From: an uncultured Clostridia bacterium
GTDB taxonomy: Bacteria > Bacillota > Clostridia > Oscillospirales > JAAYOS01
NCBI GenBank assembly: GCA_947585215.1
Contig: CANPWY010000001.1
Location: forward strand, 1 to 62,806
Direction: 5' to 3'
DNA: 62,806 bases
The translations under genes and the position numbers were made by a program. The stretch's first letter is position 1. The number at the start of each line of letters is the position of its first letter. The notes beneath the pieces are model-generated. The model did not search any database. It was not told the origin of the DNA and worked only from the letters and a program-made list of their open reading frames with translations. Shown in pieces: positions 13,924-36,700 of this stretch.

Positions 13924-13962
13924 AGACCTCGGGAGACGGCAAAGCCTCCCGAGGTCTTTTTT
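13924..13962 (+). terminator. Rho-independent terminator
   Basis: AGACCTCGGGAG / CTCCCGAGGTCT 12-bp stem followed by TTTTTT. Confidence 0.8.
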
Positions 13963-16779: not shown

Positions 16780-16791
16780 AGAAGCTCGCCT

Positions 16792-16959
16792 ATGGAGAAG
16801 GATGTGAAAGTCGATGCAAACGAGGTGCAACTCTCAAAAGAACTGCTGACCTCGTTTGCAAAATTTCTTGCCTCGGAAATCTGTAAGTTTTACGGATCTG
16901 AGGAGGGCAAAGCCTATTATGAGGCATGGCTCAAGCGGCATTCCGAAGACGCCGCCTGA
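16792..16959 (+). CDS. small hypothetical protein (55 aa)
   Basis: The ORF MEKDVKVDANEVQLSKELLTSFAKFLASEICKFYGSEEGKAYYEAWLKRHSEDAA fills the gap between parB-like and the recombinase. It is below the ORF-track length cut-off. No function recognised. Confidence 0.35.
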   Translation: MEKDVKVDANEVQLSKELLTSFAKFLASEICKFYGSEEGKAYYEAWLKRHSEDAA

Positions 16960-17053
16960 AGCCGGCGGGAAGCAATCAGCTCGTTCGACTGCTTCCCATA
17001 CATATGACTTTTACAAAAGAACGAACTACAATCAAGAGAACGGAGGAATGAAC

Positions 17054-18685
17054 ATGAAGGTAGTCATCTATGCTCGGTTTTCGAGCCACAGTCAGACAGA
17101 GCAGTCCATCGAAGGACAGTTGAAAGTCTGTTACGAATACGCCCAAAGCAACGGATATACCGTTGTTGACGAATATATCGACCGGGCGCAAAGCGGAAAG
17201 ACAGACAATCGGTTGGAGTTTCAGCGTATGATAGCCGACAGCGAGAAGCATACCTTTGAAGGTGTGCTGGTTTATCAGCTTGACCGCTTTGCCAGAAACC
17301 GCTATGACAGCGCCATCAACAAATCCAAATTAAAGAAAAACGGTGTGCGGGTCATCTCGGCTAAGGAGAATATCGCGGATGACCCATCGGGCATTTTGGT
17401 CGAGGGTGTGCTGGAAAGCATGGCGGAGTATTATTCTGCCGAGCTTTCTCAGAAAATCAACCGAGGTATGTCGATCAATGCGGAAAAATGCCTGTCCAAC
17501 GGCAGCAATCCGGGGCTTGGCTTCAAGGTCGATTCCGACCGGCGCTTTTATGTGGATGAAGATGAAGCCGCCATTGTGAGAGAGATTTTTGAACGGTATG
17601 CCGCCGGGGAAACAAAAACAGAGATCATAAGGGATTTACAGCGGCGCAAGGCGAAAACCTCATTGGGCAAGGAGTTCAGCAACAACAGCCTAAGCCGGCT
17701 TTTGAGCAACAAGCGCTATATCGGAGTGTATATGTATAAAGGACAGGAAACGCCGGGAGGAATGCCGAGAATTTTAGACGACGATTTGTTTTACCGGGTA
17801 CAGTCGATCCTGAACAAAAACAAATCCGCTCCTGCCCGTACCTACGGCGAAGGCGAATATCTCTTGACCACGAAGCTGTTTTGCGGCTACTGCAAAGAAA
17901 TGATGGTCGGGTACGGCGGTACGGGAAAGCGGGGGCGGCAATATCACTACTATAACTGCAAAAAAGCCAGAAAGAGAAAGTGCAAAAAGAAGATCGTTGC
18001 AAAACAGTTTATCGAAGACCGTGTCGTGGCAAAATGTCTGTCCCTGCTTACCGAAGAAAATATGGCGTTTATTGCAAAAGCCGTTGCGGAAGAATGCAGC
18101 AAAAGTCCCGACAGCTATTCGGTGAAGGCGTTAAAAAAGGCCATTCAAGAGGCAGACATCGCCATAGAGAATCTTTGGCGAGCCATCGAACAGGGACAAT
18201 CGGTCGCCATGCTGACGGAGCGACTGAATCAACGCAAAGCGGAGAAAGAAGAGCTGGAAGAACAGCTTGCCGTCGAGCAGAACAGGAATATCTGCCTGAC
18301 CGAGCCGCAAATCCATGCTTTTCTGGACTATGTTCGCAATCTGCCTGCAGACGATATTAACAAACGCCGGGCGATCATCAACATTTTTGTCCACTCGATC
18401 TACCTGTACGACGATTATTTTACCTTAATTCTCAATGCCGGCAGGCGGCCGCTGCGCGTTGAGAACATTCCGCTGGACGACATCGAAATGTCATTCGGCG
18501 GAGATACATATTTAGAGTACAGGTGTTCATCTATGAAAACCTCTGCTCCACCAGAAGGTCTGATGACCGGAAAAGGCTTGTTATCGAAAGATGACAAGCC
18601 TTTTTTCATATTCGGATCGATGCGTACCGGCATTTCCGCCCTCTATGCAGTTGCCCCGAACTATATAAACTTCACTGCCCGATAA
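17054..18685 (+). CDS. large serine recombinase (resolvase/invertase N-domain + recombinase + zinc-ribbon)
   Basis: MKVVIYARFSSHSQTEQSIEGQ.. contains the catalytic Ser context, and there is a ..CGYC..YYNC.. zinc ribbon. ATG at 17054 has GGAGG 6 nt upstream. Confidence 0.92.
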   Translation: MKVVIYARFSSHSQTEQSIEGQLKVCYEYAQSNGYTVVDEYIDRAQSGKTDNRLEFQRMIADSEKHTFEGVLVYQLDRFARNRYDSAINKSKLKKNGVRVISAKENIADDPSGILVEGVLESMAEYYSAELSQKINRGMSINAEKCLSNGSNPGLGFKVDSDRRFYVDEDEAAIVREIFERYAAGETKTEIIRDLQRRKAKTSLGKEFSNNSLSRLLSNKRYIGVYMYKGQETPGGMPRILDDDLFYRVQSILNKNKSAPARTYGEGEYLLTTKLFCGYCKEMMVGYGGTGKRGRQYHYYNCKKARKRKCKKKIVAKQFIEDRVVAKCLSLLTEENMAFIAKAVAEECSKSPDSYSVKALKKAIQEADIAIENLWRAIEQGQSVAMLTERLNQRKAEKEELEEQLAVEQNRNICLTEPQIHAFLDYVRNLPADDINKRRAIINIFVHSIYLYDDYFTLILNAGRRPLRVENIPLDDIEMSFGGDTYLEYRCSSMKTSAPPEGLMTGKGLLSKDDKPFFIFGSMRTGISALYAVAPNYINFTAR

Positions 18686-21411: not shown

Positions 21412-21566
21412 TCCTTTTTGAAAAATGGTCTTATAGCCCCTCGATCGTCTCCCACAGGAGCCTCTACGGGTCGCTTCCCCCGGATATCCGGCCGTCGAAA
21501 ACCGATGTGGGTTCGACTCCCGTCAGCTAAAAGGGTAGTACAGCGCGGGAAATTTGTCAATAGCCC

Positions 21567-21642
21567 TGTCCCGAAACGCAAAAAACACGACCTGAAATGC
21601 GCCAACATGCATTTCGGGTCGTGTTTTTGACGATTCGGGACA
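21567..21642. repeat. long imperfect palindrome (34-nt arms, 8-nt loop)
   Basis: The left arm at 21567-21600 pairs with the right arm at 21609-21642 in 30/34 positions. A second copy of the right arm alone lies at 29408-29441 (29/34 identical). Confidence 0.8.
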
Positions 21643-21648
21643 AAGTGG

Positions 21649-21677
21649 TTGACAAGCGGGCAGATTTTTCCGATACT
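21649..21677 (+). promoter_or_regulatory. candidate promoter of MT-STAS module 1/2 operon
   Basis: TTGACA (21649-21654), 17 nt, GATACT (21672-21677). The same arrangement is duplicated at 29448-29476. Confidence 0.5.
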
Positions 21678-21817
21678 GTAAGCGATAAATTCCGCCACTG
21701 CGATAGGATAATCGTGTTCGACGGAGGTCGCATCGCGGAGGACGGTACCTGCGACGAGCTTATCGCCCAAACGGCGTCTTCGCCGAGCTTGCGGCACGGC
21801 AAAGGCCGGATACGTAA
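21666..21817 (+). pseudogene. decayed C-terminal remnant of an ABC exporter ATPase
   Basis: ..SDKFRHCDRIIVFDGGRIAEDGTCDELIAQ matches the ..ADRIIVLxxGRIxExGTHxELxA tail of ABC exporters. After CAA(A) at about 21768-21771, the typical ending NGVFAELAARQRPDT* continues only in the +1 frame (1-nt deletion). No Walker motifs lie upstream. Confidence 0.55.
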
Positions 21818-21860
21818 GCCCCTTTGGGGCCTTTATATAGAGAGAAAGGGAGAAAACAAG

Positions 21861-23168
21861 ATGGATGAACTGAGAGAACGTACAAACCCCGTGTTCAACA
21901 CGGCCAAGGCCACGCTTTTGCATCTGACGGAGGCGGGGAACGCCGACGCCGCCATGATGGCGGAGACGCTGGGCCTTGATCTCAAGGGCATGACCCACAG
22001 CGACGAGGGAAAAACGGCAATGGGCCAGTCCAACGTTGCCATCGTGGAGCTGCGCTACCGCTCCATGAACGCTTTCATTGAGGCCACGGGCGCAAAGACT
22101 ATCGTGGACCTGCCCTGCGGCTACACGCCCAGAGCCCTGGAGGACTTTATCGCGGATAAGCGCTACATCGCCTGCGACCTCCCGGCGGTGGCGGAGGAGA
22201 TGGGTCCGCTGATAGAAGGGATATTGGCCCGGCGCGGCCAAAAGCGGGACGTTGCCTACCACGGCGTGGACGCCACAAACTACGCTTCCCTACGCTTTGC
22301 GCTGGAGGGGGCCCAGGGCTCGCTGTGCGTCACCACCGAGGGACTTTTGATGTACCTCACCGAGCCGGAGCTTGTCGCCCTCATGGACAACGTTTGGCGC
22401 GTTTTGAAAGAATTCGGCGGGGTGTGGATCACCCAGGACCCGGAGGTCGGGCGGGTGTACATAGCGATGACCGTGGCGGCCCAGAGCCGCGACCCTGCCG
22501 CCGCCAAAGCGGCTATGGAGGCCCTGGCCGACGGCGCCGACATGGGTACGGTCCTCAAGGCCATGGCGGGGGACCAGGGCCAGTCCACCCTGAACGCCTC
22601 CAAAAACACCTTTGGCGGCGCGGCGGACGTGAAATTCGGCAATGTCCTGAGCTACCGGCCGGAGCAGGCCGAGGCGGCAATGAAGGAGTCTCTCCGCGCC
22701 CATGGCCTTAAGGTGGAGCTGACGCCCCTGGCGGCGCGGATGCCGGAGCTTCAAAGCCTGTCCCCTGAGCGGACGGAGATCGCGCGTCACGCCCTGGAGC
22801 GGGTGAACCTCTGGACCGTCACCCCGGACGGGGCCGGGAGCGGGTCCGGCCCGGAGGCGGACGGCGCTTTCGGCGTGGAGACCGCCATAAACGGCCCGGA
22901 GCTCACCGTCACCCTCCAGGGCAGGGTGGACTCCCTCACCGCGCCGGAGTTCCTGGCGGCCTTTGAAAAGGCGGCGGAGGGGAGGACCCTGACGGCCGCG
23001 AAGGTGGATATGTCGAAGCTTGCGTACATCTCCTCCGCCGGTCTGCGGGTGCTGCTCATTATGACAAAGCGCGTTGGCGGGGGCCATGTGACTGTCACCG
23101 GGGCAAACGAGATCGTCCGCTCCATCTTTGAGCAGACGGGCTACGACGACATCCTGACAATTCAATGA
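21861..23168 (+). CDS. SAM-methyltransferase-like (LCMT/TcmP-like) - STAS domain fusion protein, paralogue 1
   Basis: 435 aa starting MDELRERTNPVFN.. (RBS GGGAG). Motifs IVDLPCGYTPRAL and TTEGLLMYLTEPE. C-terminal SpoIIAA-like STAS: ..VDMSKLAYISSAGLRVLLIMTKR..GANEIVRSIFEQTGYDDILTIQ. Confidence 0.8.
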   Translation: MDELRERTNPVFNTAKATLLHLTEAGNADAAMMAETLGLDLKGMTHSDEGKTAMGQSNVAIVELRYRSMNAFIEATGAKTIVDLPCGYTPRALEDFIADKRYIACDLPAVAEEMGPLIEGILARRGQKRDVAYHGVDATNYASLRFALEGAQGSLCVTTEGLLMYLTEPELVALMDNVWRVLKEFGGVWITQDPEVGRVYIAMTVAAQSRDPAAAKAAMEALADGADMGTVLKAMAGDQGQSTLNASKNTFGGAADVKFGNVLSYRPEQAEAAMKESLRAHGLKVELTPLAARMPELQSLSPERTEIARHALERVNLWTVTPDGAGSGSGPEADGAFGVETAINGPELTVTLQGRVDSLTAPEFLAAFEKAAEGRTLTAAKVDMSKLAYISSAGLRVLLIMTKRVGGGHVTVTGANEIVRSIFEQTGYDDILTIQ

Positions 23169-23192
23169 ACCTATCAAAAAGGAGCGATAAAT

Positions 23193-23420
23193 ATGGCGGA
23201 ACTGAACGAGAAAGACCTGGAGAAGGTCTCAGGCGGCACCTTGGAGATACCTGAGGAGACGATCAAAAAGTTGCACGTCCCGGTGGTCGATGCCAATCAC
23301 ACCTGCCCGCTCTTCGGCCGGGAGGACGGCACCGAAATGACCTGCTCCCACTGCATCCACGCCGTAGTCAGCGGGGGCGTCTACTACTGCGTGGACTACA
23401 TGTACAGCAAATATCATTAA
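23193..23420 (+). CDS. double-glycine-leader Cys-rich precursor-like peptide P1
   Basis: 75 aa with RBS AAGGAG. Leader is MAELNEKDLEKVSGG. The core has C-x13-CxxC-x12-C. Confidence 0.65.
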   Translation: MAELNEKDLEKVSGGTLEIPEETIKKLHVPVVDANHTCPLFGREDGTEMTCSHCIHAVVSGGVYYCVDYMYSKYH

Positions 23421-23491
23421 GAAAAAGGCGGTCGCGGTGAAAAAGCGGTTTACCGCGGCGATAGCGCGTAAATAAAAAGGAGACTCCTATC

Positions 23492-24808
23492 ATGGACAAC
23501 ATTCAAAAATTGCGAGAGGAAACCAACCCCGTATTCAACACGGCCAAGGCCACGCTGCTGCAGCTGGCTGAGGCGGGCCACGCGGACGCCGCCCTGATGG
23601 CGGCGAGGCTGGGTCTTGATCTGGCGGGCGTGACCTACAGCGACGAGGGGAAAAAGGCTATGAGCCGGTCCAACGTCGCCACTCTGGAGCTGCGATATCG
23701 CTCCATGAACGCCTTTATCGAGGCTACGGGCGCGAAGACCGTTGTGGACCTGCCCTGCGGCTATACGCCCCGGGCTTTGGAGGGCTTTATCGCCTATAAG
23801 CGCTACATCGCCTGCGACCTGCCGGCGGTAACGGACGAGATGGGCCCGCTGGTGGAGAAAATATTGGCCGAGCGGGGTCAGAAGCGAAAAGTAGCCTACC
23901 GCGGCGTGGACGCCACAAATTACGCCTCTCTCCGGGCGGCGCTGGAAGGGGTCGAAGGGCCGCTGTGCATCACTACCGAGGGACTTTTGATGTACCTCAC
24001 CGAGCCGGAGCTTGCCGCCCTGATGGACAATATCCGCCGCATTCTGGATGAGTTCGGCGGCGTGTGGATCACTCAGGACCCGGAGGTCAGCCGCGTGTAC
24101 ATATCTATGACCATGGTGGTCATGAACGACTCCGCCAAGGCAAAGGCGGCTGTGGAGGCTCTGGGCAGAAGCGCCAACATGAGCGAGGTTCTCAAAGCCA
24201 TGGCGGGCGACAAGGCTCAATCCGCCCTGAACGCCACCAAAAGCACCTTCAGCGGCGAGGCGGACGTAACATTTGGAAACGTGATGCTGGTCCGGGGCAC
24301 GCCGGAGCAGTTCGCCGCGGCGAAGGAGGCTCTCCGCGCCCACGGCCTGAAGGCAGAGCTGTCGCCTGTGGCGGAGCGGATGCCGAGGCTCGGGAGTCTG
24401 GACCCCGAGCGGACGGAGCTTGCCCGGCAGGCTATGGAGCACATCAACCTCTGGACCATCACCCCGGACGGGGCCGGGAGCGATCCCGCCGTGCGGACGG
24501 GCGGCGAATTCGGCGTGGAGACCGCCGTGAACGGCTCGGAGCTCACCGTCACCCTGCGCGGCCGGGTGGACTCGCTCACCGCGCCGGAGTTCCTCGCCGC
24601 CTTTGAAAAGGTCGCCGGGGAGAACACGCTCACCGCCGCGACGGTGGATATGAGCGGTCTTGAGTACATCTCCTCCGCCGGGCTCCGCGTCCTGCTCATT
24701 ATGACAAAGCGCCTCGGCGCGGGCAGCGTGACCGTCACCGGCGCAAACGAGCTCGTCCGCTCCATCTTCGAGCAGACCGGCTATGACGACATACTGACAA
24801 TTCGGTGA
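23492..24808 (+). CDS. SAM-methyltransferase-like - STAS fusion protein, paralogue 2
   Basis: 438 aa, collinear with paralogue 1 (VVDLPCGYTPRAL, TTEGLLMYLTEPE, YISSAGLRVLLIMTKR). Confidence 0.8.
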   Translation: MDNIQKLREETNPVFNTAKATLLQLAEAGHADAALMAARLGLDLAGVTYSDEGKKAMSRSNVATLELRYRSMNAFIEATGAKTVVDLPCGYTPRALEGFIAYKRYIACDLPAVTDEMGPLVEKILAERGQKRKVAYRGVDATNYASLRAALEGVEGPLCITTEGLLMYLTEPELAALMDNIRRILDEFGGVWITQDPEVSRVYISMTMVVMNDSAKAKAAVEALGRSANMSEVLKAMAGDKAQSALNATKSTFSGEADVTFGNVMLVRGTPEQFAAAKEALRAHGLKAELSPVAERMPRLGSLDPERTELARQAMEHINLWTITPDGAGSDPAVRTGGEFGVETAVNGSELTVTLRGRVDSLTAPEFLAAFEKVAGENTLTAATVDMSGLEYISSAGLRVLLIMTKRLGAGSVTVTGANELVRSIFEQTGYDDILTIR

Positions 24809-24827
24809 CCGTGGGGAGGGAAAAGAG

Positions 24828-25571
24828 ATGTCCGCTGTGAAAAAACATGCCATACGGCTGGCGGCGCTGGCGCTGGCGGTGTTCCCGGTTCTGGGTGCGT
24901 GCGGTAAGGCGGAGACAAAGAGCGTCTCCCCGGAGGACGCCTCGGGCTTCGTCTCGCTGGCGGAGGCGGTGCCGGACGTTATCTTGGAGATACGCTACTA
25001 CTCCACCTACAACTTCGTGGGCGACAGAATAGCGGGCTACGAGGAGCCGTGCGCCCTCCTGACCTGCGAGGCGGCGGAGGCGCTGAAGGGCGCGGCCGCC
25101 GACGCGATGGAACAGGGATACCGCCTGAAGGTCTACGACGCCTACCGCCCACAGACGGCGGTGGACAACTTCGTGGAGTGGGCGGAGGACACGGACGACA
25201 CCCGCATGAAGGCGTATTTTTACCCGGAGCTTGACAAGTCCGTCCTCTTTGAACAGGGCTACATCGCCGCCAAGTCCGGCCACAGCCGGGGGAGCACTTT
25301 GGACCTGACCCTCTTTGACATGGCCGCAGGCAAGGAGCTGGACATGGGCGGCACCTTCGACTACTTCGGGGAGCTCAGCCACCCCGACTATGTGGGGGAC
25401 CTGACGGCGGAACAAATCGAAAACCGCAATATTCTCCGGGACATCATGGTGACTAACGGCTTTAACCCCTTGGCCGAGGAGTGGTGGCACTTCACATTAG
25501 CCGACGAGCCCTACCCGGACACCTATTTCACTTTCCCGGTCTCGAGCGAGTCCGTGACAACCGACAAATAA
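24828..25571 (+). CDS. VanX/DdpX-type D-Ala-D-Ala dipeptidase (peptidase M15D) with lipoprotein signal
   Basis: Lipobox VLGAC. Motifs ..KSGHSRGSTLDLTLF.. and ..EEWWHFTL.. match VanX zinc/catalytic motifs. Confidence 0.85.
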   Translation: MSAVKKHAIRLAALALAVFPVLGACGKAETKSVSPEDASGFVSLAEAVPDVILEIRYYSTYNFVGDRIAGYEEPCALLTCEAAEALKGAAADAMEQGYRLKVYDAYRPQTAVDNFVEWAEDTDDTRMKAYFYPELDKSVLFEQGYIAAKSGHSRGSTLDLTLFDMAAGKELDMGGTFDYFGELSHPDYVGDLTAEQIENRNILRDIMVTNGFNPLAEEWWHFTLADEPYPDTYFTFPVSSESVTTDK

Positions 25572-25590
25572 CCCTGAAGGAGGAAAAAAC

Positions 25591-25809
25591 ATGACTGACG
25601 AGAAGAAAACGGCGCCGGACGCCCTGAACGAAGAGGCTCTGGAGAAGGTCTCCGGCGGAATCAGAGCTTCAGATGTCCAATGTTTTATGCAGAATAACTG
25701 CAATTATTGCCGCCGCATTATTGACTGGACCTGTCCCTACGGCTCAATAGAGAAGACAGTTGAGAAATTGGGAAGGTACGGCAGTTGCCCCGAGAAGGAG
25801 ATGTTCTGA
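25591..25809 (+). CDS. double-glycine-leader Cys-rich precursor-like peptide P2
   Basis: 72 aa with RBS GAAGGAGGA. Leader is ..[11 protein letters not shown]. Core is C-x6-CNYC-x7-CPY..C. Confidence 0.65.
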
Positions 25810-25914
25810 GGCGAACGATAATAGGAAAATTTTAGGAGGTTGCCTCCGAATCAACGGCGCTGGCAGAAGAAAAACAGGGCTGACCGGAATCTCCCGATCC
25901 GCCTACCGTGACGG

Positions 25915-25953
25915 AAGAGGCCGTCCTTATAGATGGCCTCTTTTTACTTTTTT
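25915..25953 (+). terminator. Rho-independent terminator (25 nt upstream of the next start codon)
   Basis: AAGAGGCC / GGCCTCTT stem with a 12-nt loop, followed by TTTTTACTTTTTT. Confidence 0.75.
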
Positions 25954-25978
25954 GAAGAAAACACAAGGAGGAACGACA

Positions 25979-28900
25979 ATGAAGGGATATTCCAAAAAGG
26001 TGCGGCTGGGAGCGTTGGCGCTGGCGGTGCTGATGCTTCTATGCCTGCTCACGGCCTGCGGCAAGAAGGACGACGCGATTGAGACGCTTGCCGAGCTTGA
26101 CAAGGCCGGGCACACCGTGGGCGTGGCTATGGGCTCCTCCGGCGACAAGGCGGTGACCGAGAACTTCCACAACGTGGAGATCAGCCGCTACTCCGACAGC
26201 GCCACCGCGTATATGGCGGTACAGCAGGGGAAGCTGGACGCCTTCGCCTTTGACGCCACCATGCTCCGCTACGCCATCTCCGGCGGCCTCGAGGGGGTCA
26301 AGATACTGGATGAGACCATGGGGGACATCACGGACATCGCCATCGGCGTCTCCCGTAAGACCGACATCCCCGACCTTGTGGAGAAGATAAACGCCTTTCT
26401 CGCCTCCATCCGGGACGACGGGACGCTGGACGACATGAAGCTCCGGTGGATCGAGAAGGCCGACGAAACAATGCCCGACATCCCCCTGCCCGAGGACCCG
26501 GAGGTCACGCTGACGGTGGGGACGACCGGGTTTGTGATGCCCTTCAGCTACTACAAGGACAACAAGCTCTGGGGCTTCGACATCGAGATGGCCACCCGCC
26601 TTGCCGCCTATCTGGGGGTGGGGGTGGAGTTCAATCTCTACGACTTTGACGGCGTCATCGCCGCCGCAGAGACCGGCGTCATAGACTGCGTCATGACGAA
26701 CCTGAACGTCACGCCGGAGAGACAGGAAGTAATCGACTTCTCCGACCCCATCTACACCTCCGAGACCGCCTTTCTTGTCCGTTCCGGCGAGGCGGAGAGC
26801 GGGCAGGCCATCACGGAGCTTTCCCAGCTCGACGGCAAGCGCCTCGGCGTCGCCATCGGCTCCACCTTTGACGATATCATAGACAGCACCTTCCATGACA
26901 CCGAGAAGCTCTACTACGAAAACTACTCCGACATGGCGGAGGCGCTGAAGCAAAATAAGCTGGATGGCTTTTTAATAGACGAGCCGGTGGCCCGGGTGCT
27001 GTGCACGGAGGTCGGCGGCGTCACGTGGCTTCCCGATATGCTCCGGGAGGACAGCTACGCCATTGCCATGCCAAAGACGGACAAGGGCGCGCGGCTCCGG
27101 GATGAGTTCAACGAATTCCTCGCGAAAATCCGCGCCGACGGGACCCTCGAGGAGATCGAGGACGTCTGGTTCGGTACGGACGAGCAGGCGCAGACGGTGG
27201 AGGACCCGGCAGACCTGCCCGCTACGAACGGCACCATTGAATACGCCGGCGCGCCGGGCATGGAGCCGCTCAGTTACATGAAAAATAACCGTCTGATGGG
27301 CTACGACGTGGACCTCGTGACCCGCTTCTGCAAGGAATACGGCTACGGTTTACATATCCAGATCGTGGAATTTTCCACCATGCTGGCGGGAATGGAGGCC
27401 GGAAAGTACGACATCGGCGCCGGGGGCATCACCGTCTCCGACGAGCGGGCGGAGAAGATGAACTTCACCGAACCCAACTACACCGGCGGCGTAGTGGTGG
27501 CGGTGGCCGGCGGCGAGGAGACCGAGGACGGCAGCTTCTTTGAGCGCCTCGCCATCAGCTTTGAAAAGACCTTCATCCGGGAAAACCGGTGGGAGATGAT
27601 CCTCTCCGGCCTCGGTGTCACGGCTGTTATCTCCCTCTTCTCCGCCGTCTTCGGCACGATCCTAGGCTTCGGGATGTGCATGGCCCGCCGGAGCCGCTTC
27701 CGCGTTCTCTCCGGCGCCGTGGCGTGCCTTGTGAGGGTAATTCAGGGCGTGCCGCTGCTCGTGCTGCTGATGGTACTCTTTTACATCGTCTTCGCCGGGG
27801 TGAACATCAGCGGCGTGATGGTGGCCATCGTGGCTTTCTCCATCAACTTCGCGGCCTATGTCTCGGAGATGATGCGCACGGGCATCGCCGCCGTGGACGA
27901 GGGTCAGCGGGAGGCCGCCGCGGCTCTTGGCTTCGACAGGGTGAAGACCTTCACGCGGATCATCGCGCCTCAGGCGGCGCGGCATGTTTTACCCGTCTAC
28001 CGGGGCGAATTCATCTCCCTCGTGAAGATGACCTCCGTCGTGGGCTATATCGCGGTGCAGGATCTGACGCGTGTGACGGACCTTATCCGCAGCGCCACCT
28101 TTGAGGCGTTCTTCCCGCTCATTGCCTCGGCGGTCATCTACTTCTTGTTGGCGTGGCTGCTCACCTCGGTGCTGAGCATCGCGGAAAAGCGGCTGGATCC
28201 CAAGCGCCGGCCCCGGAGGACCTTCGACGGGTTGGACGCCGCCGCTGTTGCCCCCGCCTCCGCCGGTTTCGCGGACACGGGTGCGGACACGGACGAGCCC
28301 CTTATCACCATCTCTCACCTTGAAAAGGTCTACCCCAACGTCACGCCCCTGAAGGACGTGAACACTCAGATACATAGGGGCGACGTAGTCACCATTATCG
28401 GCCCCTCCGGCACCGGCAAGAGCACGCTCCTGCGGTGCCTCAACAGGCTGGAGACGCCCACCGGCGGCAGTATCCTTGCCTTCGGCCGGGAGCTGACCAC
28501 GGCAAAGCCCAAGGAGCTCAGCGCGGTGCGCCGGAGGATGGGCATGGTGTTCCAGTCCTTCAACCTCTTCGGCCACCTGACGGTGATGGAGAACATCATT
28601 CTGGCCCCCATGCTCCTCAAAGGCGTGCCGGAAAAGGACGCGGTGGCGAATGCCATGCGGCTTCTGCGCATGGTCGGCATGGCGGAGAAGGCCGACCGCT
28701 ACCCCGACGAGCTCTCCGGCGGCCAGCGCCAGCGCGTGGCCATCGCCCGTACCCTTGCCATGGAGCCGGAGGTCGTCCTCTTTGACGAGCCCACCAGCGC
28801 CCTCGATCCCACAATGGTGGGCGAGGTGCTGAGCGTCATGAAGCAGCTCGCGGCGGAGGGGCTCACCATGCTCATCGTCACCCACGAGATGCAGTTCGCA

Positions 28901-29383
28901 CACGACGTGTCCACCCGCATCTTCTACATGGATCAGGGCGTCATCTTCGAGGAGGGCACCCCGGAGGAGATCTTCGACCACCCCAAAAAGGACCGGACCC
29001 GCGTCTTCGTCCGGCGGCTCAAGACCCTCTCCCTCTCGGCGCAGTCCCCGGATTACGACTTCATCGGACAGTCCGAGAGTCTCCGCCGGTTCGGCGAGAA
29101 GAACCTGCTCGGCCGCAAGCGTGTGTTGGGTATGCAGACCGTGTACGAGGAGATTTTGGCCCAGAGCATCGTCCCCAACCTGGGCGCCTCCTTCCCGGTG
29201 GACGTGGCGGTGGAATACTCCGAAAAGGAGGACGCCCTCACCATGCGCTTCATATGGAGCGGCGCGGACTTCGACCCCATGCAGGAGGGGGGCGAGCTGT
29301 CCGTCAAGCTGGTGCAGGCCGCCGTTCAGAGCTGTGAGCACACCTATACGGACGGCGAGAACCGACTCATCTTCACCCTGTGA
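25979..29383 (+). CDS. fully fused amino-acid ABC importer: lipoprotein-anchored family-3 SBP domains + HisM/GlnP-type permease + GlnQ-type ATPase + extra C-terminal domain
   Basis: Start at MKGYSKK.. (AAGGAGGA RBS) with lipobox LLTAC. SBP_bac_3-like repeats; a TMD with ..[13 protein letters not shown].. (EAA loop); an NBD with [26 protein letters not shown] and [12 protein letters not shown]. About 125 aa follow the NBD. It is one uninterrupted 1134-codon frame. Confidence 0.85.
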
Positions 29384-29447
29384 GAGCCGTCAAGAGGCGG
29401 AAAACATGCAATTCGAGTCGTGATTTTGTCGTTTCGGGACAAACCCA

Positions 29448-29476
29448 TTGACAACCGCTCCGAAGTTTCGGATACT
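29448..29476 (+). promoter_or_regulatory. candidate promoter of MT-STAS module 3 operon
   Basis: TTGACA (29448-29453), 17 nt, GATACT (29471-29476), inside a 73-nt segment homologous to 21605-21677. Confidence 0.5.
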
Positions 29477-29538
29477 TAAACTGAATTGATTTAGACTTAC
29501 CGCAAAATTACAAACTCATCGGAAAGGACGGCATCAAA

Positions 29539-30777
29539 ATGGACGAACTGAGAGCGAGGACCAACCCCTCATATAACTCGGCGAAATCGACCCTGGTATA
29601 TCTCATGGGAGCCGGGGACGAGAACGCGGCCATGATGGCGGGCGAGCTGCACATCGAGCCGGACGAGACGTTCGGGGAGGGGCAGAAGAGCGCCCTGAGT
29701 CTGGGCATGATGGCGCAGGTAGACGCCTTCCACGAAACTATGAACCGGCTTCTCGCCGCCGTGCCGGAGCAGACTGTCGTGGACCTTGGCTGCGGCTACA
29801 CTCCCCGGGCGCTGTGGGAGGGGCTTTCCGCCAAGCGCTTCATCGGCTGCGACCTGCCCATCGTCATCGATGATATGGCTCCGCTGATGAAAAAGCTGCT
29901 TGCGGGCAAAAACCGCCCCGCCCCCGCGGAGTACAAGGCGGCGGACTTCACAAACTACGACTCTCTGCGCGCCGCTCTGAACGGCGTGGAGGGGCCGGTG
30001 TGCCTCACGAGCGAGGGAACGCTGACCTACCTCACCCAGTCAGAGGTGCGGCAGCTCTGCGCCAACGTGCGCCGGGTGCTTACGGAGTTCGGCGGCCGCT
30101 GGCTCACTCCCGACCCGGAGGCTGGCAAGCGCACCATCGGAACGCTGAGAGCCGTGATGGGCGAGGAGGCCATCAAAAACATGATGAGCGCCTTCAACAC
30201 CCTGTCCACCCAGTCGGACGTGACGGTGGGGAACAACGATCTGGTGATGCGCTTCGGAGAGTCGGACAGCTTTGAGAAGGCGACGGCCCTTCTCTCCGAA
30301 AACGGCCTGAAGGCGAAGCCGCTCCCCATGGGCGAGTACATGCCCGAGCTGAAGGTCTTCTCCCGGCTGAACGAGCAGCAGCGCGAGTCGATGAAAAATC
30401 TGTACGCGGGCCTGACGGTCTGGGAGATCACCCCTGACCCGGACTGGAAGGAGCCCGTCCGGGAGACGGGCGGCGCGTTCGGCGTCGAGACCGCCGTGAA
30501 CGGCACGGAGCTCACCGTCACCCTGCGCGGCCGGGTGGATTCGCTCACCGCGCCGGAGTTCCTCGCCGCCTTTGAGAAGGTCGCCGGGGAGAACACGCTC
30601 ACCGCCGCGACGGTGGATATGAGCGGCCTTGAGTACATATCCTCCGCTGGACTCCGAGTCCTGCTCATCATGACGAAGCGCCTCGGCGCGGGAAACGTAG
30701 TCGTCACCGGCGCAAACGAGCTCGTCCGCTCCATCTTCGAGCAGACGGGCTATGAAGACATCCTGACGCTCCGCTGA
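29539..30777 (+). CDS. SAM-methyltransferase-like - STAS fusion protein, paralogue 3
   Basis: 412 aa with VVDLGCGYTPRAL and TSEGTLTYLTQSE. The STAS half is nearly identical to paralogue 2. Confidence 0.8.
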   Translation: MDELRARTNPSYNSAKSTLVYLMGAGDENAAMMAGELHIEPDETFGEGQKSALSLGMMAQVDAFHETMNRLLAAVPEQTVVDLGCGYTPRALWEGLSAKRFIGCDLPIVIDDMAPLMKKLLAGKNRPAPAEYKAADFTNYDSLRAALNGVEGPVCLTSEGTLTYLTQSEVRQLCANVRRVLTEFGGRWLTPDPEAGKRTIGTLRAVMGEEAIKNMMSAFNTLSTQSDVTVGNNDLVMRFGESDSFEKATALLSENGLKAKPLPMGEYMPELKVFSRLNEQQRESMKNLYAGLTVWEITPDPDWKEPVRETGGAFGVETAVNGTELTVTLRGRVDSLTAPEFLAAFEKVAGENTLTAATVDMSGLEYISSAGLRVLLIMTKRLGAGNVVVTGANELVRSIFEQTGYEDILTLR

Positions 30778-30806
30778 CAAAACAAATCGCAAAGGGGGAA
30801 CAAGCA

Positions 30807-31016
30807 ATGAACGACGAAAAGAAGCTCGACGAGAAGACCTTGGAGGAAGTCACCGGCGGGGATCTGCTTAGTACCGGCGACCCGGATATACCCGCCGGAA
30901 GCTGCAGCGAATGCGCGTGTACCGCCGTCACCTGCCCTTATTCTAACAATTTGAGTATCCTGTTGAAGAAAAGGTCAGGCGAGGAAAAATGCCTCGCGTA
31001 CATCCCCAGAACCTGA
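30807..31016 (+). CDS. double-glycine-leader Cys-rich precursor-like peptide P3
   Basis: 69 aa. Leader MNDEKKLDEKTLEEVTGG; core ..GSCSECACTAVTCPY..C..; RBS AAGGGGGA. Confidence 0.7.
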   Translation: MNDEKKLDEKTLEEVTGGDLLSTGDPDIPAGSCSECACTAVTCPYSNNLSILLKKRSGEEKCLAYIPRT

Positions 31017-31032
31017 CAAGGGGGAACAAACA

Positions 31033-31257
31033 ATGAACGACGAAAAGAAGGCCTTGGACGACAAGACCTTGGAGGACGTCACCGGCGGGGGCGATTATCT
31101 CACAGACCTCAGGACCTTCGTAGACATTTTTATGCATCACAACTGCTTGCAGTGCGCCAGATTCGAGGGGGATAACTGCCCCTACGACGGCCCGATCGAG
31201 ATGTACAACACCTATAAAATCGGCGCCGCAATCTGCCGGGAAAAACAGCCTATATAA
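31033..31257 (+). CDS. double-glycine-leader Cys-rich precursor-like peptide P4
   Basis: 74 aa. Leader MNDEKKALDDKTLEDVTGG; core ..HHNCLQCARFEGDNCPY..C.. Confidence 0.7.
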   Translation: MNDEKKALDDKTLEDVTGGGDYLTDLRTFVDIFMHHNCLQCARFEGDNCPYDGPIEMYNTYKIGAAICREKQPI

Positions 31258-31281
31258 TATAAGGACAAGGAGGAAAAAACA

Positions 31282-31491
31282 ATGAACGACGAAAAGAAGC
31301 TGGACGAGAAGACGTTGGAAGAAGTCACCGGCGGGGAGCTGATGGGCAATGCCAGCCCGGATCTGCCGTCGAGAGGATGCAACGATTGCGCGTGCAGCGG
31401 CCCGGACTGCCCCTATAGAAGTAACATAGATATCCTGATGAAAAAAAGGTCAGGCGAGGAAAGATGCTACCAGTTTATTCCCAAATCATGA
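31282..31491 (+). CDS. double-glycine-leader Cys-rich precursor-like peptide P5
   Basis: 69 aa. Leader MNDEKKLDEKTLEEVTGG; core ..RGCNDCACSGPDCPY..C..; RBS AAGGAGGA. Confidence 0.7.
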   Translation: MNDEKKLDEKTLEEVTGGELMGNASPDLPSRGCNDCACSGPDCPYRSNIDILMKKRSGEERCYQFIPKS

Positions 31492-31508
31492 AAAAAGGAG
31501 GAACACCC

Positions 31509-31718
31509 TTGAATGACGAAAAGAAGCTCGACGAAAAGACGTTGGAAGAAGTCACCGGCGGCGAGCTGATGGGCAGCGTCACCCCGGAGATACCGACGGG
31601 CAGCTGCGCTTATTGCGTACATAACGGCCCGAACTGTCCACATATAGACAACAAGAACTTTATGCTGAATATGTTGTCGGGCAAGGGAACCTGCTATTCG
31701 TTCCACCCCATAGACTGA
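31509..31718 (+). CDS. double-glycine-leader Cys-rich precursor-like peptide P6 (TTG start)
   Basis: Aligns with P3/P5 only if it starts at TTG 31509 ((M)NDEKKLDEKTLEEVTGG), which has AAGGAGGA 6 nt upstream. Core is ..GSCAYCVHNGPNCPH..C.. The ORF-track ATG at 31464 would overlap P5. Confidence 0.6.
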   Translation: MNDEKKLDEKTLEEVTGGELMGSVTPEIPTGSCAYCVHNGPNCPHIDNKNFMLNMLSGKGTCYSFHPID

Positions 31719-31764
31719 TACACTCTCGGCAAGCGGGGCGTCGGGGGTCCTTGATGAAAATTTT

Positions 31765-31801
31765 GGGCGATTTCCGCGAACGCGGAAATCGCCCCTTTTT
31801 T
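31765..31801 (+). terminator. Rho-independent terminator closing the peptide operon
   Basis: GGGCGATTTCCGCG-AA-CGCGGAAATCGCCC is a perfect 14-bp stem followed by CTTTTTT. Confidence 0.85.
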
Positions 31802-33712: not shown

Positions 33713-36700
33713 TCACCTCCCGGCATTGTCTTGCTTTTCGTTTTTACGTCTGAATAGGAGCTGTGCGGCGACGCAGACCGCAAAGAGCGCCGCGAGGCCG
33801 ATAAGGGTCCACCAGCGGCTCGCCGGCGGCTCGCGCAGAGCGTCCAGCTCCGCCGTAAACTCCTCGTAAAGGGCGTCCATGTCGCTCTGAGGGTCGCCGT
33901 CCCTTCCCTCGGCGGGGAGACCGGCGGCCAAGTTCGTGTATGTATCGAGAAGCCCGTCCAAAGCCTCGCCGTCGTAACGGCCGGTCTCTTTTGCCTTAGC
34001 GATCGCGGCCTTCGCGCTGTTCTCGAAGCGCTGGAGGCGTTGCGCCTGCCGTGTCTCAAGCTCCACATCCTCATAGGCCGCCCGGAGGCTGTCAAAGCTC
34101 TCATCCGGGGCGCTCGCCTCAAATTCCACGGCTTTCAGCACGCCGATACAGCGGTCAAAGACCTCACGGACGAACTCGCCGTCATGCTCCCGCAGGAGCT
34201 TTTCCGCCTCGTCCAGAAGCCGGGTCTTTAACTCCTCGAAGGCCGCCCTTTCGGCGCTGTCCTCGCCGGATGTGTCCGGGGACTCCGGGCGGTCGGGTTC
34301 GTCCGAGCCGTCCGTGCCGGAGGAATCGGGCTGCGTGGGTTCTGTGGCGCCGGGTTCGGAGTCGTTTGACTCGGAATCAGTGGGTTCGGAATCAGCGGAT
34401 TCGGAATCGTTAGACTCGGAGTCGTTTGACTCGGAGTCGTTAGGTTCGGAGTCGGTGGGTTCGGGGTTGGTCGGCGTGGGCTCGGCAGACTCGGAGTCTG
34501 CGGGCGTCTGGGCGGAGTTTCTCAGAGCCTCCGCCTCGGCGCGGACGTCCCCAAGGAGACCGGCGACCTCCGCTATCGTTCCGCTGCTCTCTGCGATTTT
34601 TGCGGCCACGCTCTCCCGGACGTCGTCAATGGCCTTGATGACCCGGGCATTGTCGCCGGGCTGTTTCAGAGCTTCCAGCGCCGCATCTACGGCCTCGGCC
34701 AGAGCCGCGTTTGCCGCGGCGCAGTTTTGCGCCGCGCCGATGGCCTCCACAGCCTCGGCGACCCTCGGATCCTCCGGGTCCGTGACGCTCTCACCCGTTA
34801 TGGCGTTGTAGGCGGCGAGGTATTCCGTTTGGGCGGCGGCGATCTCAGTCTTGCGCTGAGCCTCCAAATCGGCTCTCAGCGTCTCTGTCAGCTCCGCCAA
34901 GGACGCGATCTTGCCCTCTCCGGCGGCAGCTGTTGCCTTACTCATGTTCTCTATGACTGTATCTACCAAGGCCTGAACCGCGTCGGAGTCCTCCGTCCGA
35001 TTCACAAGCCCCTCGGCCGCGGAGGTCAGAGCATCCCGGAGGGCGTCGTTCATGGCCGACGTGTCCTGCGCCTGTCCTATGGCCGCCAGAGCCTCCTTCG
35101 CGGGAGAGGCGGCGGGGTCGGGGACGGCGCCCGTGAGGTTTTCCGCACCGTCCAGATATTCTTTCTGAGCCTGTCCTTGGGCGGCCTTCAGGGCAAAGGC
35201 GGTCGCCGCCTCGGCCACTATATCGTCCAGCGTCTGCCGCGCGGCGGCAAGGCCGCGGGAGAGGGTCACGTTTCGGACATCCTCCAACGCCGATGCTTTC
35301 AGCGTCGCAAGCTCCTCCCGAGCCGCTTCGTACATCTCTGTGTTGCCATACTGCGCCGCCAGCGCCTCGATCTGCCTCTCGGCGGCGGCCTTGTAGCTGC
35401 CCAGAGCGGCGGCGTTGGCGGCGGCCTGCTCCGACGCCTGTTGTGCGTCTATTTTGTTCTTAGTCTCCCGAGCCACGGCGGAGAGGTCGGCGAGCGCCCC
35501 GACGGCGTCGGCGGCGTCGACGGCCTCCTGCACGGCGGCTTTGCCTTCCTCCACGAGCTTCTGCACGGCGGAGGAGCTGTTTTTCCAGGCCTCGTCAAGG
35601 AGCGCGTTCACCTTCTCCTGCAGAAGCGCGTTCATCGCCGCGGTATCAGCCGCTTCCGCCAGCGCGAAGGCCGTGTCCACGGCCTCCCGGGCGGCGGCGT
35701 CGGTACCGGTGGGCAGACCTGTATGAGCGTCCACGGGAAGCGCCTCGCCGGTGAGAGCCTCGCGGCTCTCCAGATAGTCTTGGAATGCCTCGCCGGCGTC
35801 CTTGGCGTGGGTCAACGCTCCGTCGAGGGCGCTCACCGCGTCGTCCATCTTATCTGTATCCCCCGCCGCGCCGGCGATGTCGTCATAGGTCTGCTCCAGC
35901 GCCTGCCCGGCCAAAGTTTTGGCGCGGGGCGTCAGGTCATTCGCGGCGACAAAATCGTTATACTTTTTCTGTGCGTTCTGCGCCGGCACGACGGCGTCAG
36001 TGAAGCTCGCCATGGCATCGTCCACGGCCTTCTTATCCGCCGCGCCCTGAACGGAGTTGGCGTAGGTCTCGCAGAAGTCCTCCAGACCCGGCGTTTCCGC
36101 CGCCTTGCTCCGTATCTCCGCCGCCGTCAGGCTCCGGTAGGCAGTGAGGGGATCCGGCAGGGGCACGCTCTCCCCGCTGGACTGGTGACTCGCCAGGGCG
36201 TCATCCACCAGAGCCTTCGCGCCCTCGGGAAGGTCGTTATAGGCGTCGACACCATCGCCGACCGTTTCCTTCGTGCCCATCGGTGCGGGGTTTTGCACCG
36301 CATCCTTCATCGCCGGAAGGTACTCGTCAAGCCACGTATCGGCGGCCAGTCTGTCCCGTGCCGCCTCCAGCTCCGCGAGGCGCTCCCGCTCCAGCTCCGT
36401 CACCTCATTGAGGGCGAGATCGGTCACGACGTCTGTGGTGCCGGTAAACGTACCCTCGAGCGTTGTATATTGCGCGAGAGCGTCGGCGGGGTCAGTGCCG
36501 GCTGCGGCTTTCCACGCAGCATATGCCGCCTCAAACGCCGATTTTTCCGCGTTCTGTGCCGCCGTCAGTGTCGCGAACACGCCGCCGGGGCAAGGAACCG
36601 CCGCGCTGGGTATGGTGTCCGACCCCGCCGGCGTGCGGGCGAGGACAGTGTACTGTGTTTTCTCCAAAAGGCCGGTAAAGGAGAGCCTGCCGTCAGTACC

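Follow-up and report, generated by a model that had tools for sequence, protein, structure and literature searches.

In the genome of a gut Clostridia bacterium, six genes for cysteine-rich peptides with double-glycine (GG) leaders form an island, interleaved with three genes for MT-STAS, an uncharacterised LCMT-like SAM-methyltransferase fused to a STAS domain. The question raised by this locus is whether the fusion and the peptides form a self-sufficient system. The window that we analyzed is a stretch of 62.8 kb, and the island occupies its positions 21.55-31.8 kb. Our results demonstrated that the island encodes GG-leader peptides resembling bacteriocins or pheromones and belongs to those that NHLP/Nif11-type exporters serve; the best reading of its present state is a decayed peptide export island with MT-STAS as a recruited accessory.

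A search for the GG-leader pattern on both strands of the window matched exactly six ORFs and nothing else. All six are on the forward strand, have strong RBSs as the earlier note had claimed, and carry hydrophobic leader residues (V at -4, L at -7 and L at -12, read off the sequences). P1 (23193..23420; 75 aa; leader MAELNEKDLEKVSGG) has a core unlike those of P2 (25591..25809; 72 aa), P3 (30807..31016; 69 aa), P4 (31033..31257; 74 aa), P5 (31282..31491; 69 aa) and P6 (31509..31718; 69 aa), so that the CxxC..CP(Y/H)..C core attributed to the whole set holds for P2-P6 only, with CPY in P2-P5 and CPH in P6. The latter starts with TTG at 31509, not ATG, and its RBS is aaaggagga. Comparison with orthologues and paralogues gave dN/dS values of 0.09-0.41, and the peptide genes are therefore real and under purifying selection; the P1 orthologue in the related locus L086 is 85% identical (dN/dS 0.24). 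P1 scored 16.1 against the bacteriocin_sig model TIGR01847 (cut-off 15.7), and the window leaders matched neither the NHLP nor the Nif11 models. With leaders of 15-23 aa that end in GG and have hydrophobic residues at -4, -7 and -12, and with several tandem peptide genes, the island resembles class II bacteriocin and peptide-pheromone loci; its relatives additionally have small membrane-protein genes after the peptide genes and an adjoining C39 peptidase/ABC exporter. Unlike class II loci, the window lacks an exporter, an accessory protein and any recognisable immunity gene, its cores with four cysteines are zinc-ribbon-like, and a gene for a methyltransferase-STAS protein of 412-438 aa heads each operon, which is not a feature of class II loci as described.

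The first operon has the order MT-STAS1, P1, MT-STAS2, M15 peptidase, P2, and the second the order MT-STAS3, P3 to P6. We found both to be driven by one conserved type of direct-repeat promoter. Copy 1 (21604..21677, forward strand) has the repeats TTCGGGTC (21613-21620) and TTCGGGAC (21634-21641), with a spacing of 21 nt, and then TTGACA (21649), 17 nt and GATACT (ending at 21677); in copy 2 (29403..29476, forward strand) the repeats TTCGAGTC (29412-29419) and TTCGGGAC (29433-29440) are followed by TTGACA (29448), 17 nt and GATACT (ending at 29476). This element is also conserved 5' of the MT-STAS genes of L082, L087 and L086b; L001 and L002 have a diverged form of it. On the same strand, the first transcription unit ends in a terminator-like hairpin (25913..25944), and the MT-STAS3-P3-P6 operon, together with the island, ends in a strong terminator (31765..31794; a 13-bp stem, then a T-run). 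The claim that small ORFs follow each MT-STAS gene stood for paralogues 1 and 3, where the next peptide gene begins after 24-29 nt, and fell for paralogue 2, which has no peptide of its own: the gene that precedes P2 encodes an M15 (VanX-like) D-Ala-D-Ala dipeptidase (24828..25571, forward strand; Pfam PF01427, E 2.4e-42). L086 has this gene conserved in the corresponding place, and homologues of it adjoin standalone STAS genes in L034, L062 and L065. Another conserved passenger, syntenic in L001, L086 and L082, is a single-polypeptide amino-acid ABC importer (25979..29383, forward strand) with two SBP_bac_3 domains, permease, ATPase and a C-terminal extension of ~190 aa. At the left edge of the island, a repeat search located an unstranded inverted repeat (21554..21655; 47-nt arms, 81% complementary, 8-nt loop) that overlaps promoter copy 1; miRNA-hairpin Rfam matches at these positions are spurious and arise from the hairpin. 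The window also contains a mobile element at 13.4-18.7 kb.

The three paralogous MT-STAS ORFs described previously were all recovered on the forward strand. Paralogue 1 (21861-23168; 435 aa) and paralogue 2 (23492-24808; 438 aa) belong to subtype A, the former with a 28-aa Ala-rich insert in its MT half, and paralogue 3 (29539-30777; 412 aa) to subtype B. The STAS half was recognised in each by Pfam PF01740 (E 3e-13 to 1e-12) and by TIGR00377 (54.5-55.1 bits; cut-off 53.45). The assignment of the N-terminal half to the LCM/TcmP-like methyltransferases is weaker by sequence: the Pfam LCM model (PF04072) gave 14.1, 18.7 and 25.7 bits for paralogues 1, 2 and 3, and with a cut-off of 22.3 bits only paralogue 3 therefore passes. 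It is backed by fold, since the N-terminal ~300 residues of an AF2 model (pLDDT 84.4) have as their best structural matches the SAM-methyltransferase folds of LCMT-1/PPM1, TYW4, TcmP and ML2640c/Rv0731c, all but TcmP being named among the best PDB matches, and the C-terminal part lies within 1.1 A rmsd of SpoIIAA. Identity to the LCM relatives is 12-18%, and the shared motifs are (V/I)DLGxG..., DLP, an acidic residue before the adenine pocket and EGxxxYL; within MT-STAS, VDL(P/G)CGYTPRA, DLP, D(A/F)TN and (T/S)EGxxxYL are invariant. In alignment, the phospho-Ser position of RsfB/SpoIIAA-type STAS proteins falls on the invariant STAS segment YISSAGLRVLL. These data establish that MT-STAS joins a SAM methyltransferase of LCMT/TcmP fold, its SAM motifs intact, to a STAS domain of SpoIIAA type in which the phosphorylatable serine is retained. 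The STAS fusion sets it apart from the LCM family, and no description of such a fusion was found in the literature searched, in keeping with the earlier view that the architecture fits no described class.

A tandem duplication specific to this lineage, with a repeat period of 1640 nt, gave rise to paralogues 1 and 2, which both map onto a single gene in L086 (1500-3103). Between paralogues 2 and 3 the STAS segments are 95% identical, compared with 44% for the MT halves (dS 0.25 and 0.94, respectively), a division that parallels the conserved leaders and divergent cores of the peptides.

What the earlier note did not contain is the 3' end of an NHLP-type exporter gene (ABC permease/ATPase subunit), left as a remnant of ~120 nt at 21691-21813 on the forward strand. 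It shares 81% nucleotide identity with the 3' ends of intact exporter genes in L086 (597-720) and L087 (7656-7786), and in translation it corresponds to the C-terminal ~30 residues of the HlyB and NHLM_micro_ABC2 models. It has been reported that NHLP/Nif11 precursors are exported by a set of three proteins, an HlyD-like adaptor (TIGR03794), a C39-peptidase ABC protein (TIGR03796) and a second ABC protein (TIGR03797), and neither STAS domains nor this methyltransferase were linked to this export (Haft et al. 2010, PMC2887384). In collinear relatives (L087, L086, L020 and L092) such a set is directly 5' of the MT-STAS gene. L087 has the order STAS, sensor, HlyD, C39, ABC, ABC, MT-STAS, peptide; L086 is collinear with the window and has its ABC gene intact; L020 has C39-ABC, ABC, an ECF sigma factor and MT-STAS, followed by 4-5 GG peptides; and in L092 HlyD, C39-ABC and ABC are within 3 kb of MT-STAS. 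ABC2 of L087 scored 733 bits (cut-off 709), and ABC1 of L092 had the ABC1 family as its best match at 753 bits, under the cut-off of 853. The exporter genes have thus been lost from the locus in the window genome, where only the 120-nt stub is left, and the view that the island goes without a C39-peptidase exporter is not supported by the comparison with relatives. The likeness to NHLP/Nif11 systems extends to the L020 peptides, whose Nif11-like leaders have Nif11 as their best, sub-cut-off, family match, in contrast to the short window leaders. Also unlike in NHLP/Nif11 systems, there is no TOMM, LanM, radical-SAM or nitrile-hydratase-related maturase; radical-SAM, LanM and YcaO enzymes were absent from the window, as noted before, and likewise from every gene-called relative.

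We examined how far MT-STAS and the peptides travel together. The family is Clostridia-wide (~500 clusters), and no neighbour is universal among 107 full-length loci. GG peptides were found 3' of MT-STAS only in the clade of the window and in one distant lineage, L020, and not in about 100 other full-length loci; 80 loci (532 kb) of the rumen branch contained zero NHLP exporters and only 1-3 possible GG ORFs, and L001 and L002, which are orthologous loci, retain MT-STAS and its promoter with no peptide genes or remnants. Conversely, peptide homologues are paired with a small membrane protein with no MT-STAS within 8 kb in L174 and L178. Synteny is thus conserved only in part, in the lineages named, and the association is facultative on both sides; given the exporters of the relatives, the supposition that MT-STAS is the sole conserved partner of these peptides is not supported. 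One may ask whether the two are mere neighbours in a variable island, MT-STAS having a housekeeping or unrelated metabolic role and GG cassettes having been inserted by chance in one lineage and then inherited. The family's highly variable neighbourhoods are compatible with this, as are the rearrangement-prone region (the mobile element, truncated exporter, tandem duplication and passengers M15 and importer) and the fact that most peptide-associated loci come from one clade of closely related MAGs. We nevertheless consider it improbable, because MT-STAS occurs independently with other peptides or exporters in L020 (33% identity) and L092 (43%), the cassette is kept despite different flanks in L081 and L083 (the unit recurs likewise in L082/L087 and L086), the genes are co-transcribed from a shared, conserved and regulated promoter, and by a rough estimate the probability of an NHLP exporter in a random 16-20 kb window is well under 1%, compared with three independent lineages observed.

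The context of the STAS domain bears on another possibility. Its subfamily includes standalone STAS proteins of 98 aa, whose genes adjoin dCache-HAMP-SpoIIE-HATPase_c_2 sensors and NHLP exporters, and in some cases GG peptides; this subfamily is normally paired with a SpoIIE (PP2C)/HATPase_c_2 sensor, often near NHLP exporters. Fold and serine position resemble those of SpoIIAA/RsbV antagonists, which differ in having no covalent methyltransferase, and the partner-switching output suggested earlier gains support from this gene context. Regulation through a STAS module is known from SiaABCD. Such modules also control enzymes or transporters in HenR-STAS of Anabaena (PMC13555669) and in MlaB-MlaF (PMC7367683). 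MT-STAS might thus be a signalling protein, its STAS domain a substrate or partner of the sensor encoded beside exporters and its MT half a regulated output or SAM-sensing input on another target, or its STAS domain might modulate an ABC ATPase as MlaB does MlaF, the peptides being unmodified, class-II-like members of a shared regulon. Most MT-STAS genes, which have no nearby peptide, would fit, as would L001 and L002 with their peptide-free gene and promoter, the solitary pairs of peptide and small TM protein and the same-strand ABC exporter pairs directly upstream in several unrelated contexts (L008, L128 and L145/146). However, the window contains no kinase, phosphatase or sigma/anti-sigma partner, and such a role leaves unexplained the divergence of MT subtypes, the co-duplication with peptide cassettes, the first-gene position with its short gaps, and the absence of any enzyme other than MT-STAS from the L020 cluster of exporter and peptides. 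We regard it as possible, though unlikely.

Joint duplication with peptide genes in a cassette-like pairing, several copies per genome and the persistence of peptide-free copies (L001, L002 and many other loci) would also suit an immunity factor that methylates the cellular target of the peptides, as in some antibiotic producers, with the peptide-free copies as orphan immunity genes. This is very improbable: exported peptides normally act at the envelope, whereas the MT-STAS model has no signal peptide or TM segment and is cytoplasmic, conventional immunity-like small membrane proteins are already present 3' of the peptides in L081, L083 and L178, and an enzyme-first gene order is atypical of immunity genes.

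We return to the reading of MT-STAS as a recruited accessory. In the window lineage, and independently in L020, it may have been co-opted into the peptide pathway as an accessory enzyme in the cytoplasm that most likely methylates the precursors before export, possibly under phospho-control; to judge from its fold relatives, a carboxyl group would be the target. Among MT-STAS-peptide loci, no second enzyme class is recurrent. It has been reported that PIMT-type O-methyltransferases occur in RiPP clusters for lasso peptides, lanthipeptides, graspetides and pamtides (PMC13001092, PMC10787088). Both cases would involve a broadly distributed SAM-dependent methyltransferase family with a subset recruited beside precursor genes; PIMT enzymes, unlike the LCM-like MT-STAS, have no STAS domain and accompany a primary maturase, whereas the island has no other maturase. 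None of the characterised LCM-family members acts on leader-bearing ribosomal peptides, and the cores of the window clade and of L020 have no obvious acceptor in common. The divergent MT halves would handle the divergent cores, and the conserved STAS domain could serve for docking or regulation, its counterpart being the conserved leader, the exporter ATPase or a partner-switching kinase/phosphatase. Besides the facultative association and the lack of a common acceptor, several points count against this reading: we know of no precedent for STAS as a leader-binding domain, the pairing of MT subtype and peptide type is not strict (L176), and L081 and L083 have two tandem MT-STAS genes before one peptide.

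Our best explanation as a whole, an exporter-decayed island with MT-STAS recruited for what is most likely precursor methylation and with STAS in docking or regulation, is put forward tentatively. As the relatives reveal, the exporter genes are part of the island proper and have disappeared from it in this genome, and MT-STAS is therefore an optional accessory of a GG-peptide export pathway rather than a self-sufficient new system.

The six small ORFs of the island at 21.55-31.8 kb (P1-P6), which had been put forward as double-glycine (GG) leader peptides, are real genes, because they have strong RBSs, show dN/dS of 0.09-0.41 against orthologues and paralogues, and are the only ORFs on either strand of the whole window that match the GG-leader pattern. 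P6 starts at a TTG codon at 31509, and a leader peptide of the island reads MNDEKKLDEKTLEEVTGG. The TIGR01847 model recognized P1 just above its cut-off (16.1 vs. 15.7), scored P3, P5 and P6 at 13.0-13.2, and did not match P2 or P4; none of the six matched the NHLP (TIGR03793) or Nif11 (TIGR03798) models. A core of the form CxxC..CP..C is shared by P2 to P6, in which four cysteines and one proline are invariant, but not, as the earlier note had it, by all six, since P1 has a different core. About 60 family members were found with the peptide profile. When 80 loci were translated in six frames and searched with a six-peptide profile, nothing significant emerged outside the window's clade, and a core-motif regular expression matched only in the window and in L081 (L-numbers denote loci from other genomes). 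An AlphaFold2 model of P5 from a six-sequence alignment (pLDDT 52.8) was uninformative as to a zinc-ribbon or a disulfide fold.

The peptide genes lie in two operons with three genes for methyltransferase-STAS fusions (MT-STAS), and the sequence just 5' of the first of these, when translated, gives the C-terminal ~30 residues of an ABC exporter. Related contigs carry intact exporter genes, and this ~120-nt stretch (21691-21813) shares 81% nucleotide identity with the 3' ends of those genes. Beyond this 3' remnant we found no cognate C39-peptidase ABC exporter at the locus, and the rest of the window contained no exporter, C39 peptidase, kinase, phosphatase, LytTR or other obvious regulator; the exporter has therefore been lost at this locus. 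L087, L020 and L092 have intact or near-intact exporter sets, and L086 has an ABC gene; these exporters are of the NHLP/Nif11 type (TIGR03794/6/7; HlyD-like protein, C39-ABC and a second ABC), the second ABC of L087 scoring above the equivalog cut-off. The locus L087/L088 (MT-STAS 73% identical) encodes in order a 98-aa STAS protein, a dCache-HAMP-SpoIIE-HATPase_c_2 sensor, an HlyD-like protein, a C39 peptidase, two ABC proteins, MT-STAS, an 82-aa GG peptide and PAP2. The locus L086/L085 is collinear with the window and encodes an ABC exporter, AIM24, subtype-A MT-STAS, a P1 orthologue, an M15 peptidase, two GG peptides, a fused amino-acid ABC importer, subtype-B MT-STAS and three GG peptides. 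Taken together, these results show that the island, now partly decayed, is one for GG-leader peptides and belongs to the NHLP-exporter type, with MT-STAS genes standing first in its operons. The earlier view of MT-STAS as the sole conserved partner of the peptides does not hold, as the exporter set adjoins MT-STAS in these relatives. Signs of decay were also seen elsewhere, where assembly errors are possible: at L087 2950-5591 the HlyD-like gene is cut to 144 aa and the C39-ABC is broken into pieces of 169 and 549 aa, and at L030 7713-8459 an MT-STAS gene has an internal deletion that leaves 248 aa.

The three MT-STAS ORFs were found at 21861-23168, 23492-24808 and 29539-30777 (paralogues 1 to 3). 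Their assignment to LCM-like methyltransferases stood at the level of fold and was marginal at the level of sequence: with the Pfam LCM model (PF04072), whose cut-off is 22.3 bits, the paralogues scored 14.1, 18.7 and 25.7, paralogue 3 alone passing, and precomputed Pfam assigns LCM to a minority of homologues. When paralogue 3 was modelled with AlphaFold2 from a 19-sequence alignment (pLDDT 84.4) and the model compared with the PDB by Foldseek, the N-terminal half showed the predicted SAM-binding Rossmann fold, a class I methyltransferase fold nearest to LCMT-like structures. The top matches were 2ob2/1rjd (PPM1), 3giw, 2zwa (TYW4), 6id6 (Rv0731c), 2uyo/2uyq (ML2640c) and 3o7w (LCMT-1), with E-values from 6e-8 to 4e-6, and for the N-terminal ~300 residues the best PDB matches were PPM1/LCMT-1, TYW4, DUF574, Rv0731c and ML2640c. 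Among 19 diverse members including the three paralogues, D82, G86, D105-L106-P107, D136, E159 and Y164 are invariant, and we read these residues as putative SAM motifs, namely the Gly-rich loop, the acidic residue after strand 2 and the acidic residue before the adenine pocket.

The C-terminal half is a SpoIIAA-like STAS domain, as had been proposed. All three paralogues passed the cut-offs of PF01740 (48-50 bits vs. 22.6; E about 1e-13) and TIGR00377 (54.5-55.1 bits vs. 53.45), and the C-terminal ~100 residues of the paralogue 3 model superposed on SpoIIAA (1tid_B, 1thn_B and 1th8_B) with an rmsd of 1.1-1.2 Å over 103-104 residues; RsbV (6m36) was also matched. The segment YISSAGLRVLL, with S368 and S369, is invariant in diverse homologues, and its ISSAGL aligns with MSSAGL in 4hyl and LGSVGL in RsfB (8ih8), which places the second serine at the position of the RsfB/SpoIIAA-type serine; the choice of the MT-STAS serine that corresponds to SpoIIAA Ser58 is our own presumption. 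The serine at the start of helix 2 is thus conserved and predicted to be phosphorylatable.

Paralogues 1 and 2 both map to one subtype-A gene of L086 and repeat with a period of 1640 nt. Because they match this single gene, what had been described as a triplication consists of three copies that represent two ancestral subtypes and one recent tandem duplicate. Likewise, the pairing of each MT-STAS with peptides holds for paralogues 1 and 3 and not for paralogue 2, which is followed by an M15 gene. Identity between paralogues 2 and 3 is 95% in the STAS domain (dS 0.25) and 44% in the methyltransferase half (dS 0.94), and this uneven divergence indicates gene conversion together with strong constraint on the STAS domain. 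The contrast between conserved STAS and divergent methyltransferase halves has a parallel in the peptides, whose leaders are conserved and whose cores diverge.

A 74-nt element is common to the 5' regions of paralogues 1 and 3 and contains two copies of TTCG(G/A)G(T/A)C at a spacing of 21 nt and, after them, TTGACA-17-GATACT. This direct-repeat promoter is kept in L082, L087 and L086b and occurs in a diverged form in L001 and L002, from which we conclude that the MT-STAS operons are co-regulated by a common factor. An inverted repeat at 21554-21655 (47-nt arms, 81% complementary), one arm of which is also complementary to a copy at 29408-29454, overlaps the first copy of the promoter element and is a candidate terminator, operator or recombination scar. 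A tRNA or tmRNA attachment site at 21430-21560, considered because of the motif 'GGTTCGACTCC', was rejected: ARAGORN and Rfam gave no match, and permissive Rfam matches nearby were hairpin artefacts of the 47-nt inverted repeat. At L081 5740-8593, an MT-STAS/peptide cassette adjoins a quorum-sensing-type pair, a LytTR regulator and an HATPase_c_5 (AgrC/ComD-like) kinase, along with a 61-aa zinc-ribbon ORF. We did not assign the operator to LytTR, because the direct-repeat promoter is absent beside this pair.

The fusion itself is widespread, with more than 600 full-length matches in Oscillospiraceae, Lachnospiraceae, Ruminococcus, Eubacterium, Monoglobus and others, all annotated merely as 'STAS domain-containing protein'. 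A census with the methyltransferase half only gave 499 clusters at 50% identity; since most of these are 400-440 aa long, the dominant architecture is the fusion. Across 107 full-length MT-STAS loci there is no universal neighbour, the commonest real ones being a ~425-aa protein without Pfam match (11), ABC exporters (9) and a PAP2-like protein (8). GG peptides lie directly 3' of MT-STAS in the window's clade (L081, L082, L083, L086, L087). Outside it, L020 (33% identity) encodes a C39-ABC, a second ABC, an ECF sigma factor and MT-STAS, then four to five peptides with unrelated cores and Nif11-like leaders (16-21 bits, below the cut-off of 32.3), and L092 (43% identity) has an HlyD/C39-ABC/ABC set within 3 kb of MT-STAS. 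The rumen branch (80 loci, 532 kb) yielded no NHLP exporter and one to three plausible GG ORFs, and in the orthologues L001 and L002, from one MAG, MT-STAS is kept and peptide remnants were not found. Three new peptide contexts make the reverse synteny incomplete: L176 has MT-STAS nearby on the opposite strand, and L174 and L178 have none within ~8 kb of the peptide, which is accompanied only by a small membrane protein. A strict pairing of subtype A with P1-type and of subtype B with CxxC..CP-type peptides is contradicted by L176. The expected synteny of MT-STAS with GG-leader ORFs is therefore present in the window's clade and L020 and absent from most loci; the link is restricted to particular lineages. 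The many MT-STAS loci that have no peptide gene would suit a coincidence of neighbours, and the recurrence of the arrangement in the window's clade and in L020 would not; we regard coincidence as quite unlikely.

The ~425-aa protein occurs in L009, L011, L022, L023, L025, L103, L111, L123, L126, L132 and L176, and it often directly adjoins MT-STAS. Searches of its sequence against Pfam, NCBIfam and the PDB gave no match, and the sole motif seen is an invariant His in Hxxx(D/G)G, which resembles that of condensation/acyltransferase enzymes. In L123 and L176 it lies directly 5' of a GG-leader peptide, followed in L176 by two MMPL transporter genes, and it may itself be a peptide-modifying enzyme.

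The STAS half of MT-STAS shares its subtype with standalone STAS proteins of 98 aa that are encoded beside a fused SpoIIE-HATPase_c_2 sensor, which is also present in L087/L088. These parts form a recurrent clostridial module of a 98-aa STAS protein, a dCache-HAMP-SpoIIE-HATPase_c_2 sensor and an NHLP-type HlyD/C39-ABC/ABC exporter, seen in full in L048 and L087/L088 and in part in L040, L065, L073 and L075. NHLP exporters, M15 peptidases and GG peptides likewise occur in several standalone-STAS loci, with GG-leader ORFs near the STAS gene in L032, L041, L050, L075 and L079. Partner switching classically controls sigma factors; judged from gene content, this module suggests that it may control peptide export. 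A purely regulatory role for MT-STAS, exerted by partner switching, would suit the conserved serine and the sensor; no SpoIIAB-like kinase or PP2C phosphatase was found in the 62.8-kb window. We consider this role rather doubtful.

No known maturase family was found in the window or related loci, as the earlier note had observed for the window, nor was an RRE, and MT-STAS is the only recurring enzyme in the peptide loci, with synteny restricted to clades. The island follows the same peptide and export logic as double-glycine bacteriocin and NHLP/Nif11 systems (PMC2887384), an account whose main text makes no mention of STAS. The methyltransferases previously reported from RiPP clusters are homologous to PIMT (PMC13001092, PMC10787088) and, unlike MT-STAS, are not LCM-like and carry no STAS fusion. 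Regulation of an enzyme or of an ABC ATPase by a STAS module has precedents (PMC13555669, PMC7367683); in the literature searched we found no report of STAS regulatory modules with peptide exporters, and no description of the MT-STAS fusion or its link to GG peptides. Given the exporter context and the lineage-limited link, the proposal of a self-contained new peptide-modification system is unsupported as stated. Instead, we tentatively favour the view that this lineage recruited MT-STAS as an accessory to its peptide pathway, where it would most likely act as a precursor methyltransferase with STAS docking or phospho-regulation.

The M15 (VanX-like) D-Ala-D-Ala dipeptidase gene inside the island (24828-25571) has homologues of 61-65% identity beside same-subtype standalone STAS genes in L034, L062 and L065, and its possible role is in immunity or the cell wall. 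Immunity by methylation of the peptide target has also been considered for MT-STAS itself, and we hold this to be highly improbable. Between the operons lies a single-polypeptide amino-acid ABC importer (25979-29383) with two SBP_bac_3 domains, permease, ATPase and a ~190-aa C-terminal extension, which is conserved 5' of subtype-B MT-STAS in L001, L086 and L082.

Several other features of the window were recorded. An integrative mobilisable element at 13386-18685 (GC ~0.52 vs. ~0.61 in the flanks) carries a sigma-r4/HTH gene, a MobA/VirD2 relaxase (14432-15940), ParB-N (15937-16779) and a large serine recombinase (16856-18685). The low-GC region 1-3000 (0.40) encodes an AAA_15/AAA_21 ATPase (618-2072) and a 226-aa partner without Pfam match. 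Part of a tRNA-like sequence was matched at 2833-2889 (30.8 bits), and the region may be a foreign insert that adjoins a tRNA remnant. On the minus strand, a 1922-aa Ala/Glu-rich protein without Pfam match (33713-39481) and a 1505-aa SLH-anchored protein with a pectate-lyase-like adhesive domain (42105-46622) are probably cell-surface proteins.

Neither the MT-STAS family nor its context has been characterised, and both are open to experimental testing. If the rival readings are right, the locus is an ordinary bacteriocin-like island in partial decay, and the fusion simply adds to the signalling enzymes that have yet to be characterised. At its most specific, MT-STAS would represent a new class of peptide-maturation enzyme, a reading that we rate as unlikely: the STAS domain of this LCMT-fold methyltransferase would dock the conserved GG leader or the ATPase of the NHLP exporter, the dCache-SpoIIE-HATPase_c_2 sensor would phosphorylate and dephosphorylate the STAS serine, and an extracellular signal would thereby gate, through partner switching, the methylation and export of ribosomal peptides. 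Were this so, partner switching would be coupled to the maturation of RiPPs or bacteriocins in a way not described before. If MT-STAS methylates GG-leader peptides, it would be a tailoring-enzyme family new to ribosomal peptide natural products, and recognition or regulation would become a new function of the STAS domain, in gut and rumen Clostridia that are abundant and have been little studied. Independently of methylation, the module of STAS protein, sensor and exporter suggests that partner switching may regulate peptide export.
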